Shown piece after piece: positions 15,829 through 34,174 of a stretch of 64,000 nucleotides of DNA. Position numbers and translations under genes: made by a program. The stretch comes from an uncultured Armatimonadetes bacterium (GTDB taxonomy: Bacteria; Armatimonadota; Armatimonadia; Armatimonadales; Armatimonadaceae), in NCBI GenBank assembly GCA_903910385.1, contig CAIVZM010000011.1, forward strand, positions 15,203 to 79,202. The letters are read 5' to 3'. Within the stretch, counting starts at the first letter, position 1; the number at the start of each line of letters is the position of its first letter. The notes beneath the pieces were generated by a model. The model was not told the DNA's origin, ran no database searches, and saw only the letters and a list, made by a program, of their open reading frames with translations.

Positions 15829-16464
15829 ATGGGGGAAAAACAAAAAAAATCGGGGGGAGCGCCACGTCGGGAAAAAACGCGGGAGCAGATTCTGGAAGCA
15901 GCCTATCGCGCGCTGGTCAAAATCGGCTATGAGCGTATCACAACGAGGCGCATCGCGGAGGAGGCAGGATGTAATGTCGCCACCCTGCATTATTATTTTG
16001 GCGATAAGGAAACCCTGTTAACAGAGGCGGTCAGAGCGATTCAGCAGGAAGATTCCGCTCGAATCCGTTCCTCTATCGCCGCTGCTCCCTCCGGTGCAAT
16101 CGCGCTCGAAAGCGCGTTTAACACGGTATGGGAAATCGTACGCGAGCGACCCGGCATCGTGCGGTATGACCTGATTGTACGGGGCTTGCGTTCGGAGACG
16201 ACCCGACGCGAAGCGCTTCTCTTATATGGGGCGTTCCGCCAGTTGACCGAGGAGATCCTGCAACGGCATTTAAACGAGGGAGGCGTTCTCCCACCGGAAC
16301 TGACGATAACCGATTTGGCGCATTATTTGATTTCATCGGTAGATGGCGTAATTCTTCAATTTGCCCTCACACAGAATGAGACGATAACGCAAACCAGCTT
16401 GAATCTTATTTTGCGCAACGCTCTTTCTCTCATGGGAAATACGCTAACGAGCCCAACGAAATAA
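15829..16464 (+). CDS. TetR/AcrR family transcriptional regulator
   Basis: N-terminal HTH TREQILEAAYRALVKIGYERITTRRIAEEAGCNVATLHYYF (TetR_N signature). Confidence 0.85.
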   Translation: MGEKQKKSGGAPRREKTREQILEAAYRALVKIGYERITTRRIAEEAGCNVATLHYYFGDKETLLTEAVRAIQQEDSARIRSSIAAAPSGAIALESAFNTVWEIVRERPGIVRYDLIVRGLRSETTRREALLLYGAFRQLTEEILQRHLNEGGVLPPELTITDLAHYLISSVDGVILQFALTQNETITQTSLNLILRNALSLMGNTLTSPTK

Positions 16465-16487: not shown

Positions 16488-17060
16488 TTGAGGCTCATGA
16501 GCCAGACGGAATTTGAAAGAACCGCGCTCCCGCATCGGGACGCCTTATATGGCCATGCTCTCGCATTGACTCGTAATTCTGATGAGGCGGAAGACCTTGT
16601 TCAGGAGACGATATTGCGGGCGCTCCGCAATTTTGAATCCTTTCGGGCGGAAGGACCGGTTCGGGCATGGCTTCTTACCATTTTGCGTAACCTGTTCATC
16701 AATGGCTACCGCAGTAAAAGTCGCGCGCCCCGCGCCGTGAGTCTGGATGCGCTGGAACATCCGGACCCGATAACGCCACGCGATCCCGGCCCGGAGCGTC
16801 AGGTCTTCGCTCGAATGGAGAACGAGGCTCTTAACCTCGCAGTGGACAAATTGCCCGACGATTACCGGGAAGTCCTGGTAATGTCGGATGTTCGTGGCAT
16901 GACCTATCAGGAAATCAGCGCCGAACTCGAACTCCCCATTGGTACAGTACGTTCGCGCCTCTCCCGCGCTCGCAATCGCGTTCGTCGTTCGCTCTACGCC
17001 TGGCGCCCGGACGCTCAGGGCAGCAGTAAGATGCGGCGCGTCCCCGCTCTCATGGCATAA
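16488..17060 (+). CDS. ECF-subfamily RNA polymerase sigma-70 factor
   Basis: Sigma70 region 2 (LVQETILRALRNFESF) and region 4 (YREVLVMSDVRGMTYQEISAELELPIGTVRSRLSRAR). Starts 24 nt after TetR, so probably co-transcribed. Confidence 0.85.
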   Translation: MRLMSQTEFERTALPHRDALYGHALALTRNSDEAEDLVQETILRALRNFESFRAEGPVRAWLLTILRNLFINGYRSKSRAPRAVSLDALEHPDPITPRDPGPERQVFARMENEALNLAVDKLPDDYREVLVMSDVRGMTYQEISAELELPIGTVRSRLSRARNRVRRSLYAWRPDAQGSSKMRRVPALMA

Positions 17061-17295: not shown

Positions 17296-18195
17296 ATGGA
17301 TACCGGTTTCGGCGCTCGTCGTCTCAGCGCCTTTACCCTGATAGAGTTGCTGGTTGTCATCGCCATTATTTCGATACTGGCGGCGATCCTCTTTCCCACA
17401 TTCGCTCAGGCGCGAGAAAAAGCGCGTTCCATCACCTGCCTTTCCAACCTCAAACAGATGGGACTTGCCCTGATGATGTACAACCAGGACTACGATGAGC
17501 AAATGCCTCCTATCGCCGGAGTATATACCAAAGGCAACGTCAAGTATTTCCAGAACTGGGCGATCGATCTGATCGGCGGGCAGAATGTGGATGTGGCGGT
17601 CATTCCCAACGGGGTGGTCGTTCCGGGGTTGATTCAGTCTTACATCAAAAACAACGGCATATTCAAATGCCCTTCTGCAAATGGCGGTAACCTCTCGTAT
17701 ATGTATAACGATCTGGCGGCGCAACAATCGCTCGCCGGGTTCGCATCGCCTGCAGTGAGCGTCCTTGTTCTTGAGTCCAGTCCAGCATCCGGCGCCTTCG
17801 GCGGCCTTGCCAATCCCCTCCGGTTGAATGTGGGGCACTTCGTTGCGCCGCCTTCCGCCGATGCGCTTCCCACTACAGCGACCGCAGACCAGTTGATTCC
17901 CTACGATAACGCTACCATTCTGGACAGCGCCCGATTCAAGGATGTTACTCGCCACAATGAATTTGGCAATTACATCTTCGCCGACGGTCATGCAAAATCG
18001 TTGCGGGCTCCGTACGATGAAGAAAATGGCGTCAACAAGAACGTGTTTTTTCCCGCTCCGGCACAGACCGTTCGTACAAACCGCAGCAATGCGGTTCAGT
18101 CCGAAAACCCGGGAAATATCGCCGTTCCCGGATTGAATGAGCCGATTCCCGGCGGAAATATGATGGGCTACGCTGCAACCCTTCATCTGAACTAA
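17296..18195 (+). CDS. prepilin-type N-terminal cleavage/methylation domain protein with DUF1559 (pseudopilin-like)
   Basis: Start moved to [34 protein letters not shown] (class III signal peptide: basic stretch then FTLIELLVV). C-terminal FADGHAKSL motif typical of DUF1559. Confidence 0.75.
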
Positions 18196-24312: not shown

Positions 24313-25170
24313 TCAGAGACGGTAGATGAGCGCCGCATTGTCATGAAACAAGTTTCGTTTTTCGGCTTCCGACCAATCCGCTATGATCTCGTCCAGTATA
24401 CCTTTCCATTCGGTCAAGCTGGCGTACAGGGTGCAGACCGGCCAATCACTGCCAAATAGCAAGCGATCCTTCCCAAAAGCCTCTGCACAGTGACGGACAA
24501 TCGGTTCCAGCGTTTCGGCGGAAGGAATTCCGGTGGGCGAAGAACCGACGATACCGGACACTTTACAGTAGACGTTCGGACATTGCGCCAGGACAGCGAG
24601 CGCCATTTCCCATAAAGCGCGATCTTTGCTCTCCCGTCCGGGCGCGCCACAGTGATCGAGAATGAAGCGGGTATCCGGGCGCTGTCTCGCTAACATCGCC
24701 GCTTCCTGCAGTTCATCTCGTCCGACCAGCAAATCACAGCAAAGGTTCGCTTCCCCCAGATTCTTCGCTAGTTGCAGGAAAGGTTCATTCAGTAGAGGAG
24801 AGGTTCCCACCTGACGATGGATCGCAGGTCGAACGCCTTTCAATCCCGAATGCGAGGAAAACGTTGCGATAACGTCCCGGTAATCTTCGTGCAAGGGATC
24901 AATACTGATGACTGCGCCTGCGATAATCGCATCTTTCTGTTGCGCCTCCAGAATCCATTCCGATTCCTCGTAGCGATACTCCGCCGTGACTCCGGACTCG
25001 ACATAGATCGCCGCCTCAAGGGAAATGCCCCTCGTCGCCGCCTCATAGTCTTCGCGAGTGAAATCCCGCGCCAGCGCTCCGCTCAACCAAGGGCGGTCAA
25101 ACTGCGTCGTTGTCCAGAGATGAAAATGAGAATCAATAATATTAATATAATCAATAACAGATGATGTCAT
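24313..25170 (-). CDS. amidohydrolase-2 family metal-dependent hydrolase (TIM barrel)
   Basis: DSHFHLW near the N-terminus and LFGSDWP near the C-terminus (Amidohydro_2 signature). Confidence 0.65.
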   Translation of the reverse strand: MTSSVIDYINIIDSHFHLWTTTQFDRPWLSGALARDFTREDYEAATRGISLEAAIYVESGVTAEYRYEESEWILEAQQKDAIIAGAVISIDPLHEDYRDVIATFSSHSGLKGVRPAIHRQVGTSPLLNEPFLQLAKNLGEANLCCDLLVGRDELQEAAMLARQRPDTRFILDHCGAPGRESKDRALWEMALAVLAQCPNVYCKVSGIVGSSPTGIPSAETLEPIVRHCAEAFGKDRLLFGSDWPVCTLYASLTEWKGILDEIIADWSEAEKRNLFHDNAALIYRL

Positions 25171-25323: not shown

Positions 25324-25614
25324 ATGCCCGAAGTCAGTAGCGATTCCCAGGATGTTGATTGCCCGTTGCCCAATTACTTGTACCAGTTGCTCAAAGCGTC
25401 AGCAAGACTATGTAGCATGGATTCAAAATTGCTCGCCCAAAATTTGGGGCGAACGCGCAGTACAATTAATACTGAATTCAGAGAGATCGCCAAAAGGCTT
25501 GGTACACACAGCCGTTGCGAAGCAATTTTTGTCGCCCTCCGTTATGGCTGGGTTAAATTGCCTCCACCGGAAAAACCTTTTCTCCTGCATAGTGTGTACG
25601 AAAAGGAAGAATAA
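25324..25614 (+). CDS. small LuxR/GerE-type HTH protein (no receiver or ligand domain)
   Basis: 96 aa. C-terminal RTRSTINTEFREIAKRLGTHSRCEAIFVALRYGWV fits the LuxR_C HTH pattern (L.IS..TV..H..NI..KLGV.SR.EA...A...G). Confidence 0.5.
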   Translation: MPEVSSDSQDVDCPLPNYLYQLLKASARLCSMDSKLLAQNLGRTRSTINTEFREIAKRLGTHSRCEAIFVALRYGWVKLPPPEKPFLLHSVYEKEE

Positions 25615-25739: not shown

Positions 25740-27029
25740 GTGTCAAGGCTGTTGATCATTCTGCCTACCTATAATGAATGTGAAAATTTGCCGCGTATAA
25801 CGAGCGCCCTGCTTAGGTTATTGCCGGAAGCGCATCTGCTGGTTGTGGATGACTCTTCGCCCGATGGTACAGGCAATATTGCTGACGAATTGGCGCGACA
25901 TGAGAATCGTCTTTATGTATTGCACCGTCCCCGCAAAGAGGGTTTAGGGCGCGCTTACATTTCTGGGTTTCAATGGGGATTGGCTCATGAGTATACCCAT
26001 TTCGCTCAGATGGATGTGGATGGCTCCCATCGCCCGCAAGACCTTCTTAACTTGCTCCCTATTCTGGACAAGGCGGATGTTGTTATTGGCTCCCGCTTCA
26101 TTCCAGGAGGACGAATTGAGCGCTGGCCTTTGTGGCGACATTTGCTCAGTTTGGCTGGCGGCTTGTACATCCGTACAATTTTGCATTTATCAATTGGTGA
26201 TGTGACAAGCGGGTTCAAATGTCTTCGACGGTCAGCGCTCGAAGGTTTACATTTATCGGAGATTGGCGCCGTCGGATATTGCTTTCAATGCGAGATGAAT
26301 TATCACTGGGCTTCCTTGAACCTACTCGTCGTAGAAGTTCCCATAGTGTTTATGCCTCGAGTTGCTGGTCGCTCGAAAATTTCTACCGCCGTTATTAGTG
26401 AGGCATTATGTTCTCCCTGGCGTTTACGTAGGCAATCGCCATTAAAAAGAACTACGTGGTGCAATACCCTAAATTGGGTATTGCCCCTTGTGTTGAATTC
26501 TATTATATTGCCATCAAAAAACTTGCTATGTTCAATGGTGAATCGAAAGACAATTATGTCACCACAACTCCAGAGTCGCTACTTTGGTCTTAGACATTTC
26601 AATCTTTATATCTCCCTGACACTTCTGTCAACGATTTTCTTGATCGCCGCCTTCGCGAAAATGCAACGGTTTAGCGAACTTCAGGCGACGATAGTTGCAT
26701 CGCGTCTTGTCCCGGATTTATTGACCTTAGCAGTCGCCCGATTAGTTATTGGCGCGGAGTTAGTAGTCGCTACGTTTATCTGGTTACCATCTTGGCGGGT
26801 GGCGACGCTATGCGTTCTTTCGCTGTTAGCAAGCGTTTTTGCGAGTTATTCCGCTTGGCGCGGACTGATGGGGATACAAGTCCCCTGTCACTGTTTTGGA
26901 ATTTTGTATAGCCTTGCTCCTTGGCAAGGTATAGCACTCAATCTGATATTACTGGTTGTCGTAGCGAATCTTTATACTTTGGGGCTTAATCCTACGAGGA
27001 ATTCTACACCCAACATATTCGTCAGATAA
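25740..27029 (+). CDS. polyprenol-phosphate mannose/glucose synthase (Dpm1/Ppm1-type GT2) fused to C-terminal 4-TM MauE/DoxX-like domain
   Basis: Residues 1-230 align motif-by-motif with DPM synthases (ILPTYNE.ENL; VVDDSSPDGTG; GSRFIPGG; VEVPI.F..R.AGRSK). Residues about 250-429 have four TM helices with PCHCFG, resembling the MauE CGCFG motif. A GtrA-like flippase domain is the alternative. Confidence 0.75.
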   Translation: MSRLLIILPTYNECENLPRITSALLRLLPEAHLLVVDDSSPDGTGNIADELARHENRLYVLHRPRKEGLGRAYISGFQWGLAHEYTHFAQMDVDGSHRPQDLLNLLPILDKADVVIGSRFIPGGRIERWPLWRHLLSLAGGLYIRTILHLSIGDVTSGFKCLRRSALEGLHLSEIGAVGYCFQCEMNYHWASLNLLVVEVPIVFMPRVAGRSKISTAVISEALCSPWRLRRQSPLKRTTWCNTLNWVLPLVLNSIILPSKNLLCSMVNRKTIMSPQLQSRYFGLRHFNLYISLTLLSTIFLIAAFAKMQRFSELQATIVASRLVPDLLTLAVARLVIGAELVVATFIWLPSWRVATLCVLSLLASVFASYSAWRGLMGIQVPCHCFGILYSLAPWQGIALNLILLVVVANLYTLGLNPTRNSTPNIFVR

Positions 27030-27182
27030 ATCTGACTTATACAGTGTCGTTTTCCTCAGAGGCAATATACGGTGGGAAGCCACAGCGAAACTTACTGATT
27101 CCTAACGACTGGCAACAAATTACCAATAATAGACGCATCGTTTTCTTTGTTAAAAGGACTGTAAATGTTAAGGAGGGTCGAA

Positions 27183-27620
27183 ATGTATCGTTCTCTTGCG
27201 ATCAGTTGCGTAATGGGGCTCTGTCTGTCACTATACGCCATAACTTCAACGGGCGCCGCGACAATACCACAGAGGTCGGGATTTATGTCACGCCCATTGA
27301 GTGCGGAGGAAATGAAGGATACAGGTGGGCGGGGCTACAGTTGCGATAAAACTATCTGTCAAGTCCCAGACGGGACATACCCATGCATACCTTGGTATGT
27401 CGGTGGCACTTGGCAATATAGCTATACAAACTCATATAATCCAGGTTTGACTTGTCGACAAAACAACCAAGATCCCAACTCTACCTGTGTACAGTTCTCT
27501 AAATGGTGTTCATGGACACAGTATTATCAAACGACTAACTGTACGGATATTCCCTACACTTCAACACACACCATGAATAACTTCTGTAGCGGAGGTAATG
27601 CAACGCATCCAACACCATAG
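27183..27620 (+). CDS. small secreted Cys-rich protein (8 Cys in mature region; Trp/Tyr/Thr/Asn-rich)
   Basis: ATG at 27183 with AAGGAGGG 5 nt upstream. Signal peptide MYRSLAISCVMGLCLSLYAITSTGAA. Mature part has 8 Cys, 3 N-x-T sequons, a GG site (LSAEEMKDTGG) and almost no charged residues. Confidence 0.65.
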   Translation: MYRSLAISCVMGLCLSLYAITSTGAATIPQRSGFMSRPLSAEEMKDTGGRGYSCDKTICQVPDGTYPCIPWYVGGTWQYSYTNSYNPGLTCRQNNQDPNSTCVQFSKWCSWTQYYQTTNCTDIPYTSTHTMNNFCSGGNATHPTP

Positions 27621-27708: not shown

Positions 27709-28773
27709 ATGAACATTACATATACAAAAAACCATTTGTCATGGACGATACTCGTCGTTTTCTTGATTGCTTTTCTGCCTGTTAGGGCAATATCTCAAAA
27801 TAGCGTACGCCCGTCTATCTCCGATATAATTCAGGCGCATCAACAAAGGCGTGAGATTTTGAATGCTGTCTTTACGTTTGAATATAATAATAGTTGGATT
27901 CTTCCTCTACCTGGGGGGAAAGAAACAGGGAATGCGGCGGAGGCAGTGTTAGGCGAATTTTATATTTTCCAATCTATACAGAATAATGTCGATCCTGCTA
28001 ATCAAATGCCTATCTTTGTGTACGATGGAACCCAAACGCATTTATTGAGTAATGTCTCTTTGAACACTTCTACTGGCAAGTTAGATGGCGGTCAAGGTCA
28101 GCAAAGAGATACGGCAGTTGACGGAAAGAAAAATTCTCTTTATGGGCCGGCTGAATTTGGTTTTAAGATAGAGGGCGATTGGATCTGCGACGTTTTGCAA
28201 CCTTCGTTTAAAATGGTTTCTATCTCCGATGACATAGGGAACGGAAAACTATACGAGTATTTGGGCCAATATCGGAACACTCCTTTACGATTGACTTTCG
28301 CTCCCAAATATAACTACGCCTGTATCAAAGCGGAGTGGAAATCCAGCGCCACCAGAACTATAATTTTTGAAGCGGCGAATTTTATTAATGATCACGGTCT
28401 TTGGTTCGCCCAAACGGGTAGCATGCGGACGATTGACACTCAAAAGAATGGCGTAAAGTTCACAGCGGGTCAATCTGTCATTTTCTCTGATTATCAGATC
28501 AATAACGCTCGTCTTACACTGGCTAACCAATTATCCGAGGCTACCTTTCAAGTGCGCTTGGCTAAAGGGAGTCAAGTGTTCGATCAAGACCGAAGAACTG
28601 TTTACAAAGTTGGGGAGAACAATGAGAAGTTCGAAGATAAAGAAATGGTGCGGCTGATGAAGCTGAACCGCCTGCCAATGGCGATAGGCTGGTTATTTAT
28701 AGGGAGTATGACCACACTGCTTCTCCTGGGACTGGCGGCTTTCATCCGATGGCGACGACGCGATTCTTCATAA
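27709..28773 (+). CDS. secreted protein with C-terminal TM anchor and basic tail (sorting-signal-like)
   Basis: Start at MNITYTKNHLSWTILVVFLIAFLPVRA (signal peptide). C-terminus …LNRLPMAIGWLFIGSMTTLLLLGLAAFIRWRRRDSS is a motif/TM/RWRRR arrangement like PEP-CTERM or LPXTG tails. The 3' end overlaps the C39 gene by 25 nt. Confidence 0.55.
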   Translation: MNITYTKNHLSWTILVVFLIAFLPVRAISQNSVRPSISDIIQAHQQRREILNAVFTFEYNNSWILPLPGGKETGNAAEAVLGEFYIFQSIQNNVDPANQMPIFVYDGTQTHLLSNVSLNTSTGKLDGGQGQQRDTAVDGKKNSLYGPAEFGFKIEGDWICDVLQPSFKMVSISDDIGNGKLYEYLGQYRNTPLRLTFAPKYNYACIKAEWKSSATRTIIFEAANFINDHGLWFAQTGSMRTIDTQKNGVKFTAGQSVIFSDYQINNARLTLANQLSEATFQVRLAKGSQVFDQDRRTVYKVGENNEKFEDKEMVRLMKLNRLPMAIGWLFIGSMTTLLLLGLAAFIRWRRRDSS

Positions 28774-29243
28774 TACTGATTTGCCTGAGCGTGGGATGCT
28801 GGCTTCCCTCCTTATATGAGCCACCTCATATTCTTGCCCAACAATCATGTGGCGAACGTAGCTTGTTTGCAGCCGCAACTTCGATAGGACTACAGATCAC
28901 GGAAAAACAGGTGCAAGAAGTCCTCCCGGCAGGCGTGGAATCGTCTACGTTTGCTGAATTGCAAATCGCTGCCTCTCGATTAAACCTTCAAGCCGAGGGG
29001 CGTCAGCTAACTACCACCGACATTCTGCGGGGTCATTATATTGGTGTGTTGCACGTTGACCAAAATCATTTCGTGGCCTTGATAGGGCATGATGAAGACT
29101 CCGTAGAAATCATTAACCCTGTCTACCGCAATTTACTTAAAAAAGAATGCTGGTTTGTCAATGACTTGGAAACACGTTGGGATGGACGAATACTCATTTT
29201 GCAACGTCAAACAAGGATGAATGGTAGCAATGAATTCAAATAA
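28749..29243 (+). CDS. standalone peptidase C39-like (bacteriocin-processing-type cysteine peptidase) domain protein with N-terminal signal/anchor
   Basis: QQSCGERSLFAAATSIG (Gln/Cys of the C39 catalytic site) and NHFVALIGHDEDSVEIINP (His/Asp block, compare ComA LHYYVVTGQDKDSIHIADP). Hydrophobic N-terminus. 5' end overlaps the upstream gene and 3' end overlaps the DUF2079 gene. Confidence 0.7.
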   Translation: MATTRFFIILICLSVGCWLPSLYEPPHILAQQSCGERSLFAAATSIGLQITEKQVQEVLPAGVESSTFAELQIAASRLNLQAEGRQLTTTDILRGHYIGVLHVDQNHFVALIGHDEDSVEIINPVYRNLLKKECWFVNDLETRWDGRILILQRQTRMNGSNEFK

Positions 29244-30888
29244 TCAAATTGCTCCTATAGACATTCGATTCATGGTAAGAATGTTCACTCCACGAATCCA
29301 CAATGTTGTTCTAATAACATTAGTCTTTGTTTACGTGATAATTTTCTCTTGTTTGACCTGTAGCTTATTTGATCGCCTTGGTTACATGAATTTTGATATG
29401 GGGATTTTCGATCAGGCTACATATTTGATCAGTCATGAGGAAGAACCTTTTGTCACATTGCGCGGAACGCACATCCTTGCCGATCATTTTAGTGTTATTC
29501 TTTATCTGCTGGCTCCACTTTATGTCCTATTTCCGAGTCCTAAAACCTTGCTGGTAGTCCAGACCGTCGCATTGGCATCAGGCGTTTTTCCCGTCTATTG
29601 GCTGGCGAAGGAGAAAACAGGGACACCTTTTGTTGCTCTAATATTCTCTGTGGCTTATCTTTGTCACCCAGCGTTGCAGTGGAGCAATACCTATGAATTT
29701 CATCCAGATACCTTGGCTACGCCCGCATTTTTATTTGCGCTCTACTATTTGAACCAAAAGCGCTGGATCGGCTATTTTTCTGCACTTCTATTTGCAGCAC
29801 TAACGAAGGAGAATGTTGGTCTCACAATTTTCTTTATCGGATTTTGCCTTTTCCCTCATCAACGCAACATGGGAGTCGCCACCTTGATTACAGGAGTCGC
29901 CACACTATGTATAGCGTTAATGACAATACGCTACTTTAATGGAGCCCCCTCACCTTATGTTTACCTTTATTCGCAATGGGGAGCAACGCCGTTTGCTGTC
30001 GTTACACACTTTGTCCTTAATCCGAAACTACTGTTAACACTTTTTTGGAACAATTATAGCTATTTTGTTTTTCTGTTGACGCCATTACTTTTCCTTCCGC
30101 TTTTCGCACCAGAAAAACTCTTACCCGCGCTACCAGCCATAGCGACGAACCTGCTTAGTAATAGATCAGGAATGCATAATATAGAGGAACAATACACCGC
30201 ACTCATAACGCCATTTTTTATCGTCGCCGCTATTGCCGGTTACGAACGTTTATCTTACTGGATTCATCATCTCGCTAAAGGATACGCCGACTTGATCTGC
30301 TACGGGGTTTTGATGAATCTGTTATTGTGGGCATGCGGCGGCACTTTGCTCTGGGGACCCTTCTCCCGCGACACGGAGAGTCTGTATTCCGTTTTCTCAA
30401 TCGAAGAAGCTCGTGAAATTCGGGAAACGCTTTCTGTAATCCCGCCAACTGTGTCGGTGTCTGCGCAAATGGGATTAGGATCGCAACTTTCCCAGCGGCG
30501 ATTCATCTATCACTTTCCTAATCCCTTTTCGAAAAATGTTTGGGGAGGCACAAAACAGGCGTTAATTGAAGTCGCATCTATCGAGGGAGCTACCTTGTCT
30601 GCCGATTATAACAGTAACATTGCGCGTACGCCTGTTGAGTATATTGCCTTAGTCCCGCTCTCCTCATGCTTCCCTTTTTCCTTCGAAAGATATATGCATA
30701 CCATCACTCTTTTACTCAAAAATCCCGCTTATGGCGTCATCACAGTGGGAAAAAACGCCATTGTTTTACGGCGCGGCGCAAACCATAAATCAGGTATCCA
30801 ATTGCTGGCGCGGCGGGGGGATATTGTCACAGACGATTCAGAACAGGCGCTTTGGGCATGGCTTACCCGATCTCATTCGCGACGGTGA
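29221..30888 (+). CDS. DUF2079-family polytopic membrane protein (GT-C-fold glycosyltransferase-like)
   Basis: More than 10 TM helices. N-terminal block MNFDMGIFDQATYLISHEE…HFSVILYLLAPLYVLFPSPKTLLVVQTVALASGVFPVYWLA matches the DUF2079 signature (DLGIFDQA…DHFSPIL…PSP.TLL.VQ). Confidence 0.65.
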   Translation: MVAMNSNNQIAPIDIRFMVRMFTPRIHNVVLITLVFVYVIIFSCLTCSLFDRLGYMNFDMGIFDQATYLISHEEEPFVTLRGTHILADHFSVILYLLAPLYVLFPSPKTLLVVQTVALASGVFPVYWLAKEKTGTPFVALIFSVAYLCHPALQWSNTYEFHPDTLATPAFLFALYYLNQKRWIGYFSALLFAALTKENVGLTIFFIGFCLFPHQRNMGVATLITGVATLCIALMTIRYFNGAPSPYVYLYSQWGATPFAVVTHFVLNPKLLLTLFWNNYSYFVFLLTPLLFLPLFAPEKLLPALPAIATNLLSNRSGMHNIEEQYTALITPFFIVAAIAGYERLSYWIHHLAKGYADLICYGVLMNLLLWACGGTLLWGPFSRDTESLYSVFSIEEAREIRETLSVIPPTVSVSAQMGLGSQLSQRRFIYHFPNPFSKNVWGGTKQALIEVASIEGATLSADYNSNIARTPVEYIALVPLSSCFPFSFERYMHTITLLLKNPAYGVITVGKNAIVLRRGANHKSGIQLLARRGDIVTDDSEQALWAWLTRSHSRR

Positions 30889-30906
30889 AAGAGTAAGAGA
30901 AATCTA

Positions 30907-31725
30907 ATGAAAAAAGTTCAGACTATTAAAAAGCGGTCAATACAGGGTTTTACTTTAATCGAACTGCTCGTTGTTATCGCCATTGTCGCGCTACTGGCGG
31001 CCATAATCTTTCCCGTTTTCTCTCGAGTGCGTGAGAACGGCAGATCAAGCGTTTGCATGTCAAATATGCGGCAACTGGGTTCCGCCGTAACGATGTATAT
31101 TCAAGATTACGATGAGACATACCCAATGAATCGTATTCCCGACGCTAAACATCCGTTACAGGTCTGCCAGGTTAGTGGAAAGACCCCCGGAATGGACGGC
31201 AGCAGTCTGAATTGGCGACGTGTTACATTTCCCTACGTCAAGAATCTGAAACTTTACGAGTGTCCCTCAAACGGGTATGCCTGGGTTGCACCGGCGCCAG
31301 GAATTCAGGGCGGCGATGAATCAAATGCAGAATGGCCCGCCTCGCAAGACCATTTTCCGCTATCCTATGCGTACAATGGCAGTTTTTTTCATGAGTCCGC
31401 CCCCTGCAACATAGGCGAAGCATTACAAAGACCACGGCGCGCTACCGAAATCCGTGATTCGTCGCGTCTGCTCCTACTTTTGGAAACGCGGATCTCGCCG
31501 CCTGACCTCGGAAGTTGGTCGCTTACATGGGTATATGGCAACGATAAATCACATGGCGTATTTCAGGTCCATAATGGCACAACTAACTTTGTCTTTGTGG
31601 ATGGTCATGTCGCCGGCAAAAAATTAGCTACGACTTGCGATAATAAATACTGGTCAGATGGCTATCCTGATCCCGATTCGACTTGTAACGACCTCCCGAC
31701 CGAATTATTCGACGAGTACCGCTAA
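30907..31725 (+). CDS. prepilin-type N-terminal cleavage/methylation domain protein with DUF1559 (pseudopilin-like), island copy
   Basis: [38 protein letters not shown] class III signal. C-terminal FVFVDGHVAGKK (DUF1559 motif). Paralog of 17296..18195. Confidence 0.75.
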   Translation: MKKVQTIKKRSIQGFTLIELLVVIAIVALLAAIIFPVFSRVRENGRSSVCMSNMRQLGSAVTMYIQDYDETYPMNRIPDAKHPLQVCQVSGKTPGMDGSSLNWRRVTFPYVKNLKLYECPSNGYAWVAPAPGIQGGDESNAEWPASQDHFPLSYAYNGSFFHESAPCNIGEALQRPRRATEIRDSSRLLLLLETRISPPDLGSWSLTWVYGNDKSHGVFQVHNGTTNFVFVDGHVAGKKLATTCDNKYWSDGYPDPDSTCNDLPTELFDEYR

Positions 31726-32167: not shown

Positions 32168-34174
32168 ATGGCGACAAAGGGATGTTTTGAAGTAGTCAGC
32201 AAGTTTAAGCCGTCCGGCGACCAACCACAGGCGATTGGCAAACTGGTGGATGGCCTTAACAAGGGCTACAAAATACAGACGCTACTGGGAGCTACCGGAA
32301 CCGGTAAGACATTCACTGCGGCGCAAGTCATCGAAACCGTCCAGCGACCAACTCTCGTTATCGCGCACAACAAGACTCTGGCGGCGCAGTTATGCTCCGA
32401 ATTCCGCGAGTTCTTTCCCAATAACGCGGTCGAATACTTCGTCTCCTATTACGATTACTATCAGCCGGAAGCCTATATTCCGCAGACCGATACCTTTATC
32501 GAAAAAGACTCGTCCATCAATGAGGAGATTGACCGTCTTCGTCACTCCGCCACTCAAGCGGTGCTGGAGCGGCGCGATGTCATCATTGTCGCCTCGGTTT
32601 CCTGTATCTATGGGTTGGGAGCGCCGCAAGAGTACGCCAATCAGCGGGTATGGTTCCATACCGGGCAGGAGTATGATCGGGACGAACTTTTGCGCCGGTT
32701 GGTGCGTGTGCAGTTCTCTCGCAACGATGTGGCGCTCACTCGCGGCACATTCCGGGTTAAGGGCGATACTTTAGAATTACAACCCAAAGATGAAGAGATT
32801 CTTTACCGTATCGAATTTGACTGGGACACCGTCAAGCGTATCTCCGCCCTCGACCCGTTGACGGGAGAACTGATCGAAACCCGCGACGAACTGACCATCT
32901 TCCCCGCTACTCACTTTGTCACCGACCCCGACAAGCTGGAAGAAGTGCTGGAAGGAATCGAACAGGAAATGCTCGCGCAGGTCAAAGCGTTCAAGAGTGA
33001 GGGCAAACTGATCGAAGCGCAACGTATCGAACAGCGGACGCGCTTCGATCTGGAAATGATCCGCGAGGTCGGATTCTGTTCCGGAATCGAGAACTATTCC
33101 CGCTGGTTCGATGGACGCCCCCCGGGAACCGCTCCGCACACCCTGTTCGACTACTTCCCGAAAGATATGTTGCTCATCATCGATGAGTCTCACCAGACTA
33201 TTCCTCAGTTACACGCCATGTTCGCCGGCGATAAACGGCGGAAAGATACGCTGGTAGAGTTTGGTTTCCGACTGCCTTCGGCGCGGGACAACCGACCTCT
33301 ACGATTCGAGGAAACGGAGGCGCGTATCAATCAGGTCGTGTTTGTCTCCGCAACGCCCGGGCCTTACGAGAAGCAGAACAGTCAACAGATTGTCGAGCAG
33401 ATTATCCGACCCACCGGACTGATCGATCCGGAAATCCTCATTCGCCCGACGAAGGGTCAGATCGATGATCTTATCAACGAGATTCGAATTCGCACAGAGA
33501 AAAAGGAGCGTATTCTGGTCACGACCCTGACAAAAAAAATGTCGGAGGATTTGACCGAGTACCTGACCGAGATCGGTTCCAAGGTGCAGTATCTGCATTC
33601 GGACATTCACACTCTGGAGCGCACCGAGATCCTCCGTGATTTGCGCCTGGGTATCTACGATGTCCTGGTCGGTATCAACCTGTTGCGGGAAGGTCTCGAC
33701 CTCCCGGAGGTTTCTCTGGTCGCTATTCTGGACGCGGACAAAGAAGGGTTCCTGCGTTCGGAAACGTCGCTCGTGCAGACGATCGGTCGCGCCGCGCGTA
33801 ATGTTGGCGGGCAGGTCATTATGTACGCGGACAATATTACGGGTTCGATGGCCCGCGCTATCGATGAGACCAACCGCCGTCGCGCCAAACAGGTCGCCTA
33901 TAACACGGAACACGGTATCACTCCGCAGACCGTCATCAAATCGATTCGCGACGTTCTGGAATCTCGAAAGGTAGCAGAGACCAAATCCTACTATCGTGTC
34001 GCTTCCACCAAAGTCCCGGAAACGCTTCCTCTGGATCAGGTCATGCTCGCTATCGCCGATATCGAAAAGGAAATGAAGCAGGCCGCCCGAAACCTCGACT
34101 TCGAGCAGGCCGCTGTCCTCCGCGACGAAATCGCCCGCCTCAAAAAACTCGTTCCGACAAACGCCAAACGGTAA
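32168..34174 (+). CDS. uvrB: excinuclease ABC subunit B
   Basis: Full-length UvrB: Walker [11 protein letters not shown], beta-hairpin region, helicase motifs and C-terminal UvrB/UvrC interaction domain. Confidence 0.95.

Follow-up and report, generated by a model that had tools for sequence, protein, structure and literature searches.

A GT-C-fold DUF2079 protein genetically coupled to a pilin-like DUF1559 protein in an envelope gene cassette of Armatimonadota

When the gene for a membrane glycosyltransferase lies directly against that of a pilin-like protein, is the pilin-like protein what the enzyme modifies? This question is raised by a 64,000-nucleotide stretch of DNA (hereafter the window) from an uncultured Armatimonadetes bacterium, in which an open reading frame (ORF) for a DUF2079 protein (29221-30888, plus strand, 555 aa) is followed, after a spacer of 18 nt, by an ORF for a prepilin-type DUF1559 protein (30907-31725, plus strand, 272 aa). 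An initial annotation of the window had described exactly this succession, which our coordinates and Pfam matches bear out, and had proposed a pair for the glycosylation of a pilin-like protein. Our analysis places the two genes in a seven-gene envelope cassette of Armatimonadota that appears undescribed. The explanation that we rank first, with a rough probability of 0.38 as a whole, is that the two proteins form one functional unit in which the DUF1559 protein is the single most likely acceptor. This acceptor was ranked first because pairs occur that are self-sufficient, because the adjacency does not depend on gene order, and because there is a precedent in the TfpW system of Pseudomonas.

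The conservation of the pair was assessed in loci fetched around homologues (78 from genomes, 79 from metagenomes and several contigs), which were annotated with profiles made from the window proteins. The cassette runs, in order, from a GerE-like regulator through MauE (with or without a GT2 domain), a Cys-rich protein, a protein of 330-390 aa (U391) and a C39-like peptidase to DUF2079 and DUF1559. Counted by lineage, 17 carry this cassette and the DUF2079 flank can be read in 14; the cassette-type DUF1559 gene abuts DUF2079 in 13 of these (the window, L002, L004, L005, L007, L023, L083, L085, L087, L093, L162, L164 and L252). In approximately 580 kb of non-redundant Armatimonadota DNA around DUF2079 genes, DUF1559 genes accounted for 11 of the 77 immediate same-strand neighbours of DUF2079 and for 2 of the 538 other genes (odds ratio 45, Fisher P-value 4e-9), which is far beyond chance, and prepilin motifs were almost absent elsewhere in the DUF2079 flanks. 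The adjacency is kept down to 34-37% DUF2079 identity, and it also survives rearrangement: the order is reversed in L164 (C39-DUF1559-DUF2079), a divergent DUF1559 gene lies upstream of DUF2079 on the short contig L090, and the pair stands without the other cassette genes in L019/L020 and in L028. DUF1559 and DUF2079 are the two best conserved proteins of the cassette, with mean identities of 52% and 45%, compared with 34% for C39, 27% for U391 and a mean column identity of 28% (alignment A2) for the fast-diverging Cys-rich protein. Moreover, the pairwise identities of DUF2079 and DUF1559 correlate (r 0.67), showing that the two have diverged together.

Coupling also took the form of a natural fusion. 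Among the five best hits of a HMMER scan seeded with DUF1559 was a single 845-aa ORF (P0128; L252:2315-4852 in GCA_020849275.1, and also in L253), of which residues 24-525 are DUF2079 (34% identity, E 3e-84) and residues 585-845 are a cassette-type DUF1559 protein (44% identity, E 1e-62), with roughly 60 aa of Arg-rich linker between the halves. Records of the identical product exist for 20 contigs, and its surroundings are a cassette of MauE, Cys-rich protein and U391. Since the 60 codons ahead of the intact ...RRRARG/FTLIELL site (the slash marks the prepilin cleavage position) contain no ATG, GTG or TTG, P0128 reads as a true fusion, and because the search started from DUF1559 it is free of DUF2079 selection bias. 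This reciprocal analysis of DUF1559 context consisted of two hits only: the fusion, and a second one whose contigs were too short to read.

Could the two genes merely co-travel in a low-GC island, their adjacency being mechanistically meaningless? The island spans approximately 25.3-31.7 kb of the window, at a GC content of 0.456 against 0.549 for the rest, and the same-strand run of ORFs is bounded by an amidohydrolase gene (24313-25170, minus strand) and uvrB (32168-34174). Comparable features were found elsewhere: in every genome examined the cassette lies 3-13 GC points under its flanks, cassettes occupy differing, unrelated genomic contexts, and fragments of insertion sequences (IS) lie in or beside two other copies, namely an IS3-type OrfA-like ORF (identified by eye) within the cassette, between MauE and U391 (L023:7753-8088), and IS605 OrfB/TnpB fragments just after the cassette (L164:6555-7028). 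Mere hitch-hiking is nonetheless contradicted by the conservation data, as the adjacency persists at low DUF2079 identity, after a swap of gene order, after loss of the other genes and as a fusion, with the P-value given above; we consider it very improbable. As to how the island arrived, its borders in the window show no integrase, no tRNA and no Rfam match, and its ends no meaningful terminal direct or inverted repeats. The co-acquisition of both genes suggested in the initial annotation therefore draws on composition and variable location only, and no mobility genes flank the island. Promoter-like sites in the island were at the level of shuffled sequence, while terminator-like sites reached about twice the shuffle mean, none of them at a border. 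A phage origin was also considered and rejected, as IMG/VR held no relative of DUF2079 and only distant generic matches to DUF1559. PADLOC gave no match of the cassette to a known defence system, and no NCBIfam or PADLOC model covers it.

What kind of enzyme is the DUF2079 protein? Its Pfam match (PF09852) covers residues 52-436 (E 2.4e-58, 198.8 bits against a cutoff of 28.2), and the chain comprises 10-12 hydrophobic segments and a C-terminal alpha/beta domain of about 170 aa. An AlphaFold2 (AF2) model made from 26 homologues was confident (pLDDT 91.4, pTM 0.90), structurally close to ArnT and PMT, and a Foldseek search likewise supported the GT-C fold. The GT-C-like nature proposed at the outset is thus upheld at the level of structure, although a sequence-level search against solved chains and GT-C enzymes gave no match. 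The Pfam scan of the 555-aa protein returned DUF2079 alone, with no Wzy_C/O-antigen-ligase domain, and the NCBIfam scan returned nothing. In 26 sequences, D59, D88 and H89 are invariant and D64 is conserved in at least 90%; these residues lie in the loop after the first transmembrane helix. Because that loop is net negative and the following short loops alternate between +2 and -2, the first acidic loop and the invariant EFHPD loop are best placed outside the cytoplasm. An FPNPF motif is conserved in the C-terminal domain, where the P433-N434-P435 core is invariant. The charge bias fixes the N-terminal seven-helix module, not the C-terminal helices or the side of the domain of about 170 aa. 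In ArnT, PglB and TfpW the C-terminal domain lies outside, whereas in the fusion an Arg-rich linker would fit more easily with this domain of DUF2079 inside. The nearest named relative is from an Armatimonas metagenome-assembled genome (52% identity), others being from Chthonomonadales. On the strength of the model, we regard DUF2079 as a GT-C glycosyltransferase; such a fold, however, would not discriminate between protein, lipid and glycan acceptors.

The partner gene encodes a prepilin-like product. The Pfam scan identified N_methyl (E 4.5e-8) and SBP_bac_10/DUF1559 (E 1.8e-9, 38.5 bits against a cutoff of 23.3), and NCBIfam TIGR02532 scored 30.4 bits against a cutoff of 16.3. The N-terminus, MKKVQTIKKRSIQG/FTLIELLVV, has a short basic leader ending in Gly, Phe at +1, Glu at +5 and a hydrophobic alpha1 helix, and thus a canonical class III signal (KKRSIQG/FTLIELLVV); over the N-terminal 60 residues, the family profile matched the alpha1 helices of PilA, GspG and geopilin chains in the Protein Data Bank (PDB), with E down to 2e-13. 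The protein has six Cys residues, and an H-x9-DG motif (HNGTTNFVFVDG) is visible at its C-terminus, where TIGR04294 scored 16.4, under its cutoff of 19. The HMMER scan, which covered 1.84 billion representative sequences, found 216,087 relatives at E <= 1e-3, of which 49 remained at E <= 1e-30 and about 10 at E <= 1e-50. Judged by these sequence comparisons, the cassette-type DUF1559 is a tiny, distinct subfamily. The window copy is 43-55% identical to other cassette-linked copies and 29% to a second DUF1559 paralog in the window (17296-18195), in keeping with the divergence reported in the initial annotation. The same holds for composition: the paralog outside the island is GC-typical (GC 0.54, GC3 0.62) and the island copy is lower (GC 0.49, GC3 0.49). 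We observed that the genes immediately before the paralog encode a TetR regulator (15829-16464) and an ECF-type sigma factor (16488-17060).

The nature of the sugar donor was approached through gene context. Upstream in the window cassette, at the head of the operon, an ORF at 25740-27029 (plus strand) encodes a fusion of a Dpm1-like GT2 domain (residues 1-231; Pfam Glycos_transf_2, E 5e-23) and MauE (residues 291-411; E 1e-16), a membrane redox domain with a PCHCFG motif. The best PDB match of the GT2 part was the Dol-P-Man synthase of Pyrococcus furiosus (5mlz, E 1.5e-28). A GT2 resembling the polyprenol-phosphate sugar synthase that had been assigned to this operon is thus present; the GT2 domain is, however, lineage-specific and occurs in two cassette lineages only, those of the window and L004. 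MauE stands alone in L002, L005, L083, L162, L164 and L252, and most cassettes have MauE only. On contig L001, 99% identical elsewhere, about 270 nt are missing (window 26992-27290, corresponding to L001:1080-1110). The gap removes the last part of the GT2-MauE gene, the spacer after it and the portion of the Cys-rich gene that encodes the signal peptide; it reflects either natural variation by deletion or a difference in assembly. Beyond the cassette, DUF2079 paralogs of Armatimonadota adjoin plain GT2 genes (L008, L011, L012, L022 and L091), and in an Acidimicrobiia locus (L249:6732-11080) a phosphomannomutase (PMM), a GT2, DUF2079 and a GtrA-like flippase form a complete three-component set for polyprenyl-P-hexose. 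These family contexts therefore support a polyprenyl-monophosphate-hexose donor for the DUF2079 family, and we infer a polyprenyl-phosphate-linked sugar donor for the window enzyme as well.

The same contexts bear on what receives the sugar. Cyanobacterial DUF2079 genes occur in tandem arrays of 2-4 paralogs, never beside prepilin genes, and in L008, L011, L012 and L091 two or three DUF2079 genes accompany one GT2. The non-random co-occurrence of DUF2079 with prepilin-type genes, on which the initial proposal depended, therefore stands within the Armatimonadota clade and fails outside it, where DUF2079 never adjoins such genes; the DUF1559 link is specific to one clade. Tandem arrays, like the GT2/GtrA/PMM sets of actinobacteria, are a pattern typical of glycan building, so that DUF2079 could instead modify an envelope glycolipid or polysaccharide in the manner of ArnT, ALG or Aft/Mpt enzymes, with DUF1559 linked only through secretion or surface assembly. 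Such remodelling of the surface could, for example, protect the cell from its own Cys-rich protein, or concern a lipoglycan handled by U391, one member of which has a LolA_like match (E 1e-5); it would also fit the nearest folds of the DUF2079 model. Yet it leaves unexplained why the adjacency is independent of gene order and why DUF2079 is fused to a tiny DUF1559 subfamily, and the Pfam and NCBIfam scans found no Wzx, Wzy, ligase or further glycosyltransferases in the cassette. We therefore regard an envelope glycolipid or polysaccharide as a quite unlikely acceptor.

For a protein acceptor, the closest analogue, as far as published descriptions allow comparison, is TfpW of the Pseudomonas aeruginosa group IV pilA-tfpW(-tfpX) arrangement. 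There, tfpW lies beside pilA and encodes a GT-C protein with 11 predicted transmembrane helices, a cytoplasmic N-terminus, an essential acidic motif in loop 1 and a periplasmic TPR C-terminal domain, which takes its donor, DPA, from the polyprenyl-P-arabinofuranose pathway (bioRxiv 10.1101/2020.04.19.049825). The window locus resembles this in having a GT-C gene directly beside a pilin-type gene, conserved acidic residues in loop 1, a sizeable soluble domain at the C-terminus, a predicted polyprenyl monophosphate donor and island-like inheritance of the cassette. It differs in that the C-terminal domain is small alpha/beta rather than TPR, that the neighbour is a DUF1559/H-x9-DG pseudopilin-like protein and not a major pilin, that the DUF1559 gene is usually downstream of the enzyme with no pilus genes nearby, and that the donor synthase is Dpm1-like (hexose) and not of the DPA pathway; among the window ORFs scanned there were no DprE1/E2-like genes.

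The analogues named in the initial annotation, PglL and TfpO (PilO), have to be replaced. PglL/TfpO enzymes are members of the Wzy_C/O-antigen-ligase family that use Und-PP-linked oligosaccharides to glycosylate periplasmic pilins, tfpO adjoining pilA. The window protein, in contrast, has DUF2079 only, and the synthase in its operon is of the polyprenyl-monophosphate-sugar type. Because the donor synthase is Dpm1-like and PglL/TfpO are Wzy_C enzymes that use Und-PP-glycans, TfpW, PMT and ArnT are the proper analogues. In three-component systems such as GtrA/GtrB/GtrC, ArnC/ArnT and Ppm1/PMT, the Pol-P-monosaccharide made by a Dpm1-like GT2 serves a GT-C enzyme outside the cytoplasm, and the acceptors differ: O-antigen, lipid A, and Ser/Thr of secreted proteins. 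The likeness to these systems lies in the closeness of the DUF2079 model to ArnT and PMT, which answers the comparison with characterized GT-C families for structure and not for sequence, and in the full GT2, GtrA and GT-C set of the actinobacterial locus. The difference is that the window lacks a GtrA-type flippase and that its GT2 is MauE-fused and missing from most cassettes.

Taken together, the mechanism that we favour would start with the Dpm1-like GT2 domain, here MauE-fused, making a polyprenyl-monophosphate-hexose on the cytoplasmic face of the inner membrane. DUF2079 would then transfer the single hexose from this donor, at the outer face of the membrane, to the neighbouring DUF1559 protein, whose pilin-type N-terminal helix would anchor it in the membrane, in a pilA-tfpW-like fashion. 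The pair forms the conserved 'machinery' end of the cassette, and the variable end encodes exported proteins.

Four conserved genes of that cassette, namely MauE, the Cys-rich secreted protein, U391 and the C39-like peptidase, had been omitted from the initial annotation. The Cys-rich gene (27165-27620, plus strand) predicts a small protein with a Sec-type signal peptide, a propeptide (LSAEEMKDTGGR/GYSC) and a core of about 95 aa with eight conserved Cys; it has no Pfam or NCBIfam match. Alignment A2 of 12 orthologues shows the conserved Cys columns and a GxGY motif, and L162, L164 and L252 hold further members. Throughout the family, a propeptide of 15-25 residues with a double-glycine-like end (LSNAEMTAISGA/GY in L087) precedes a core of 67-106 aa with the eight Cys. 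The U391 gene (27709-28773, plus strand; longest ORF from 27598) encodes an exported protein with a signal peptide, a beta-rich domain of about 300 aa and a C-terminal anchor, consisting of a conserved GWLF..S.TTLL..VRW(R/K) transmembrane segment and a basic tail; the family is present in all cassettes. The Pfam LolA_like match mentioned above concerns 1 of 15 members, a PDB profile search gave no match, and the AF2 model was unusable (pLDDT 37), with just three database homologues recruited. The stand-alone C39-like cysteine peptidase (28749-29243, plus strand, 164 aa, N-terminal membrane anchor) matches Pfam Peptidase_C39 (E 1.2e-7, 32.1 bits against 22); its 13 orthologues, of 150-200 aa with one N-terminal transmembrane helix, share an invariant Cys in CG..SL and His in HFV. 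The cassette is headed by a putative regulator, a GerE/LuxR-type helix-turn-helix protein of 96 aa (25324-25614, plus strand; weak Pfam GerE match, E 0.0023, below cutoff) with homologues at the equivalent position in L002, L004, L005, L010 and L093. Two observations concern single cassettes or sub-clades. An extra conserved 156-aa protein stands between C39 and DUF2079 in one sub-clade (L002:9422-9892, L005:3638-4111 and L083:2679-3152); this protein, presumably cytoplasmic, lacks a signal peptide, and its L002 copy has no Pfam match. In L004 (12611-17521) the genes next after the cassette encode a PSCyt1/PSCyt2/PSD1 protein and a PSD-domain protein, families that are typical of Planctomycetes.

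The variable end points to processing of the Cys-rich protein. The C39 gene is missing in L004, L010 and L252, which are exactly the cassettes whose Cys-rich protein lacks the LSxxEM...GxGY propeptide, and this co-variation is the best evidence that the C39-like peptidase would trim the Cys-rich protein. Since the substrate has a signal peptide, cleavage would take place outside the cytoplasm. As in PCAT transporters with C39 domains and double-glycine leaders, there are a catalytic Cys and His and, just before the Cys-rich core, an LSxxEMxxIxG(G/A/x) motif that co-varies in presence with the peptidase. Unlike in PCAT systems, the C39 protein is stand-alone, of 150-200 aa with one transmembrane helix and no ABC gene in the cassette, and in its predicted substrate the motif comes after a Sec-type signal peptide, the mature product being about 70-105 aa long. 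Oxidation of the Cys-rich protein by MauE may be deduced from adjacency; among the loci examined, MauE occurs only in cassettes with the Cys-rich protein and is absent from both stand-alone pairs. MauE and MauD are needed for maturation of the disulfide-rich small subunit of methylamine dehydrogenase (MADH). The cassette is similar in that a MauE gene lies beside one for a small exported protein with many Cys, and differs in lacking MauD, MADH genes and a TTQ context. Probably, then, the Sec-exported eight-Cys protein would be oxidized with the help of MauE and trimmed after the double-glycine-like motif by the anchored C39-like peptidase, alongside a C-terminally anchored, possibly LolA-like U391.

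Small Cys-rich proteins are not confined to the cassette. A second type of module (L018, L021 and L092) combines DUF1573, a small secreted Cys-rich protein, an N-anchored protein of about 270 aa (family A6) and DUF2079. The A6 genes (L018:2040-2834, L021:9038-9859, L092:8991-9791 and L092:13462-14304) lie just upstream of non-cassette DUF2079 genes, share the motif 'GKVLGNP...YP...VLWxDG' and come after a small secreted Cys-rich ORF, to which L092 adds a DUF1573 protein. Homology between A6 and DUF1559 was considered and rejected: motifs line up, but hhalign gave a probability of 0.6% (E 0.09). In L014 (5775-11545), a PIG-V-like mannosyltransferase and DUF2079 share one module, each after a small secreted Cys-rich ORF and an anchored protein. 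In a genome of 4.86 Mb (L247:6363-10629), a small Cys protein, a U391-like anchored protein, DUF1573 and DUF2079 interrupt what is normally a single operon, lying between prkA-DUF444 and spoVR. In L166 (8001-16292), the genes after DUF2079 encode a CBM96-like protein, a C39-domain protein of 383 aa and an RHS/YD-repeat protein of 1360 aa, an array that adjoins a type I-C-like CRISPR-Cas locus.

Several findings weigh against the DUF1559 protein as acceptor. Among the window ORFs scanned there is no flippase (and the Pfam and NCBIfam scans found none of the GtrA-like kind in the window cassette), and no pilus-assembly gene, whether for a pilus, a type II secretion system (T2SS) or a prepilin peptidase. 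The sole recurrent N-x-S/T in DUF1559 ('NGS') falls within a SYAYN motif common to the whole family, the sequon being missing from 2 of 11 copies. In contrast to typical glycosylated surface pilins, DUF1559 is better conserved than the DUF2079 enzyme, and same-clade DUF2079 paralogs share the C-terminal domain but have no DUF1559 neighbour. L009, the sole exception among the 14 readable lineages, lacks DUF1559 and carries a pair of DUF2079 genes. Upstream of clade DUF2079 genes there is a twelve-fold enrichment of small secreted Cys-rich ORFs (14 of 163, against 4 of 503; P-value 2e-6), which includes modules without DUF1559. Finally, the fusion suits partner subunits at least as well as an enzyme and its substrate.

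These points lead to the alternative that DUF1559 is a membrane-anchored periplasmic partner of the GT-C enzyme, which recognizes acceptors or stabilizes the enzyme, while the eight-Cys protein and/or U391 are the acceptors. PIG-X has such a stabilizing or partner role for PIG-M, and OST has accessory subunits. A single-ORF fusion is natural for physically associated subunits, and the pair is conserved (45% and 52%) where the Cys-rich protein (28%) and U391 (27%) vary like cargo; the Cys-rich enrichment, moreover, persists where A6 or DUF1573 replaces DUF1559, or where the GT-C protein is PIG-V-like. On the other hand, L019/L020 and L028 have the pair without any Cys-rich or U391 gene; the fusion keeps an intact prepilin cleavage site, so that processing may separate its halves; and homology of A6 with DUF1559 was not supported by hhalign. 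N-glycosylation sequons were also looked for in the Cys-rich cores, where N-x-S/T is not enriched (19 observed against 15 expected). We rank the DUF1559 protein as acceptor above DUF1559 as partner, which is possible, on its own rather unlikely, and almost as likely as the former. A more specific elaboration, which we think improbable, is that the whole cassette is a maturation system for a secreted protein, in which the eight-Cys protein would be oxidized by MauE, clipped by C39 and hexosylated by a 'split' GT-C enzyme whose DUF1559 recognition module acts in trans, or in cis in the fusion. If true, this would give a first function to any DUF1559 member, as a membrane-anchored periplasmic adaptor and not a filament subunit.

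In the literature searched, the name 'DUF2079' was absent from full texts, PF09852 gave one irrelevant paper, and MauE together with C39 gave irrelevant matches only. DUF1559, one of the largest uncharacterized protein families of prokaryotes, appeared there only as a large paralog family without known function; one planctomycete has 68 DUF1559 paralogs, two of them essential, with function not known (PMC10632474). A GT-C enzyme genetically coupled to a pilin-type protein is of a kind already known, and it is the surrounding cassette that appears to be new. The cassette suggests an unusual use of C39, outside the cytoplasm and on a Sec substrate. Pilin-linked glycosylation by GT-C enzymes, so far known from TfpW of Pseudomonas, may extend to a deep-branching phylum. 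Above all, a small co-evolving and once-fused pair ties one DUF1559 subfamily to a GT-C enzyme, by which the function of DUF1559 becomes testable.

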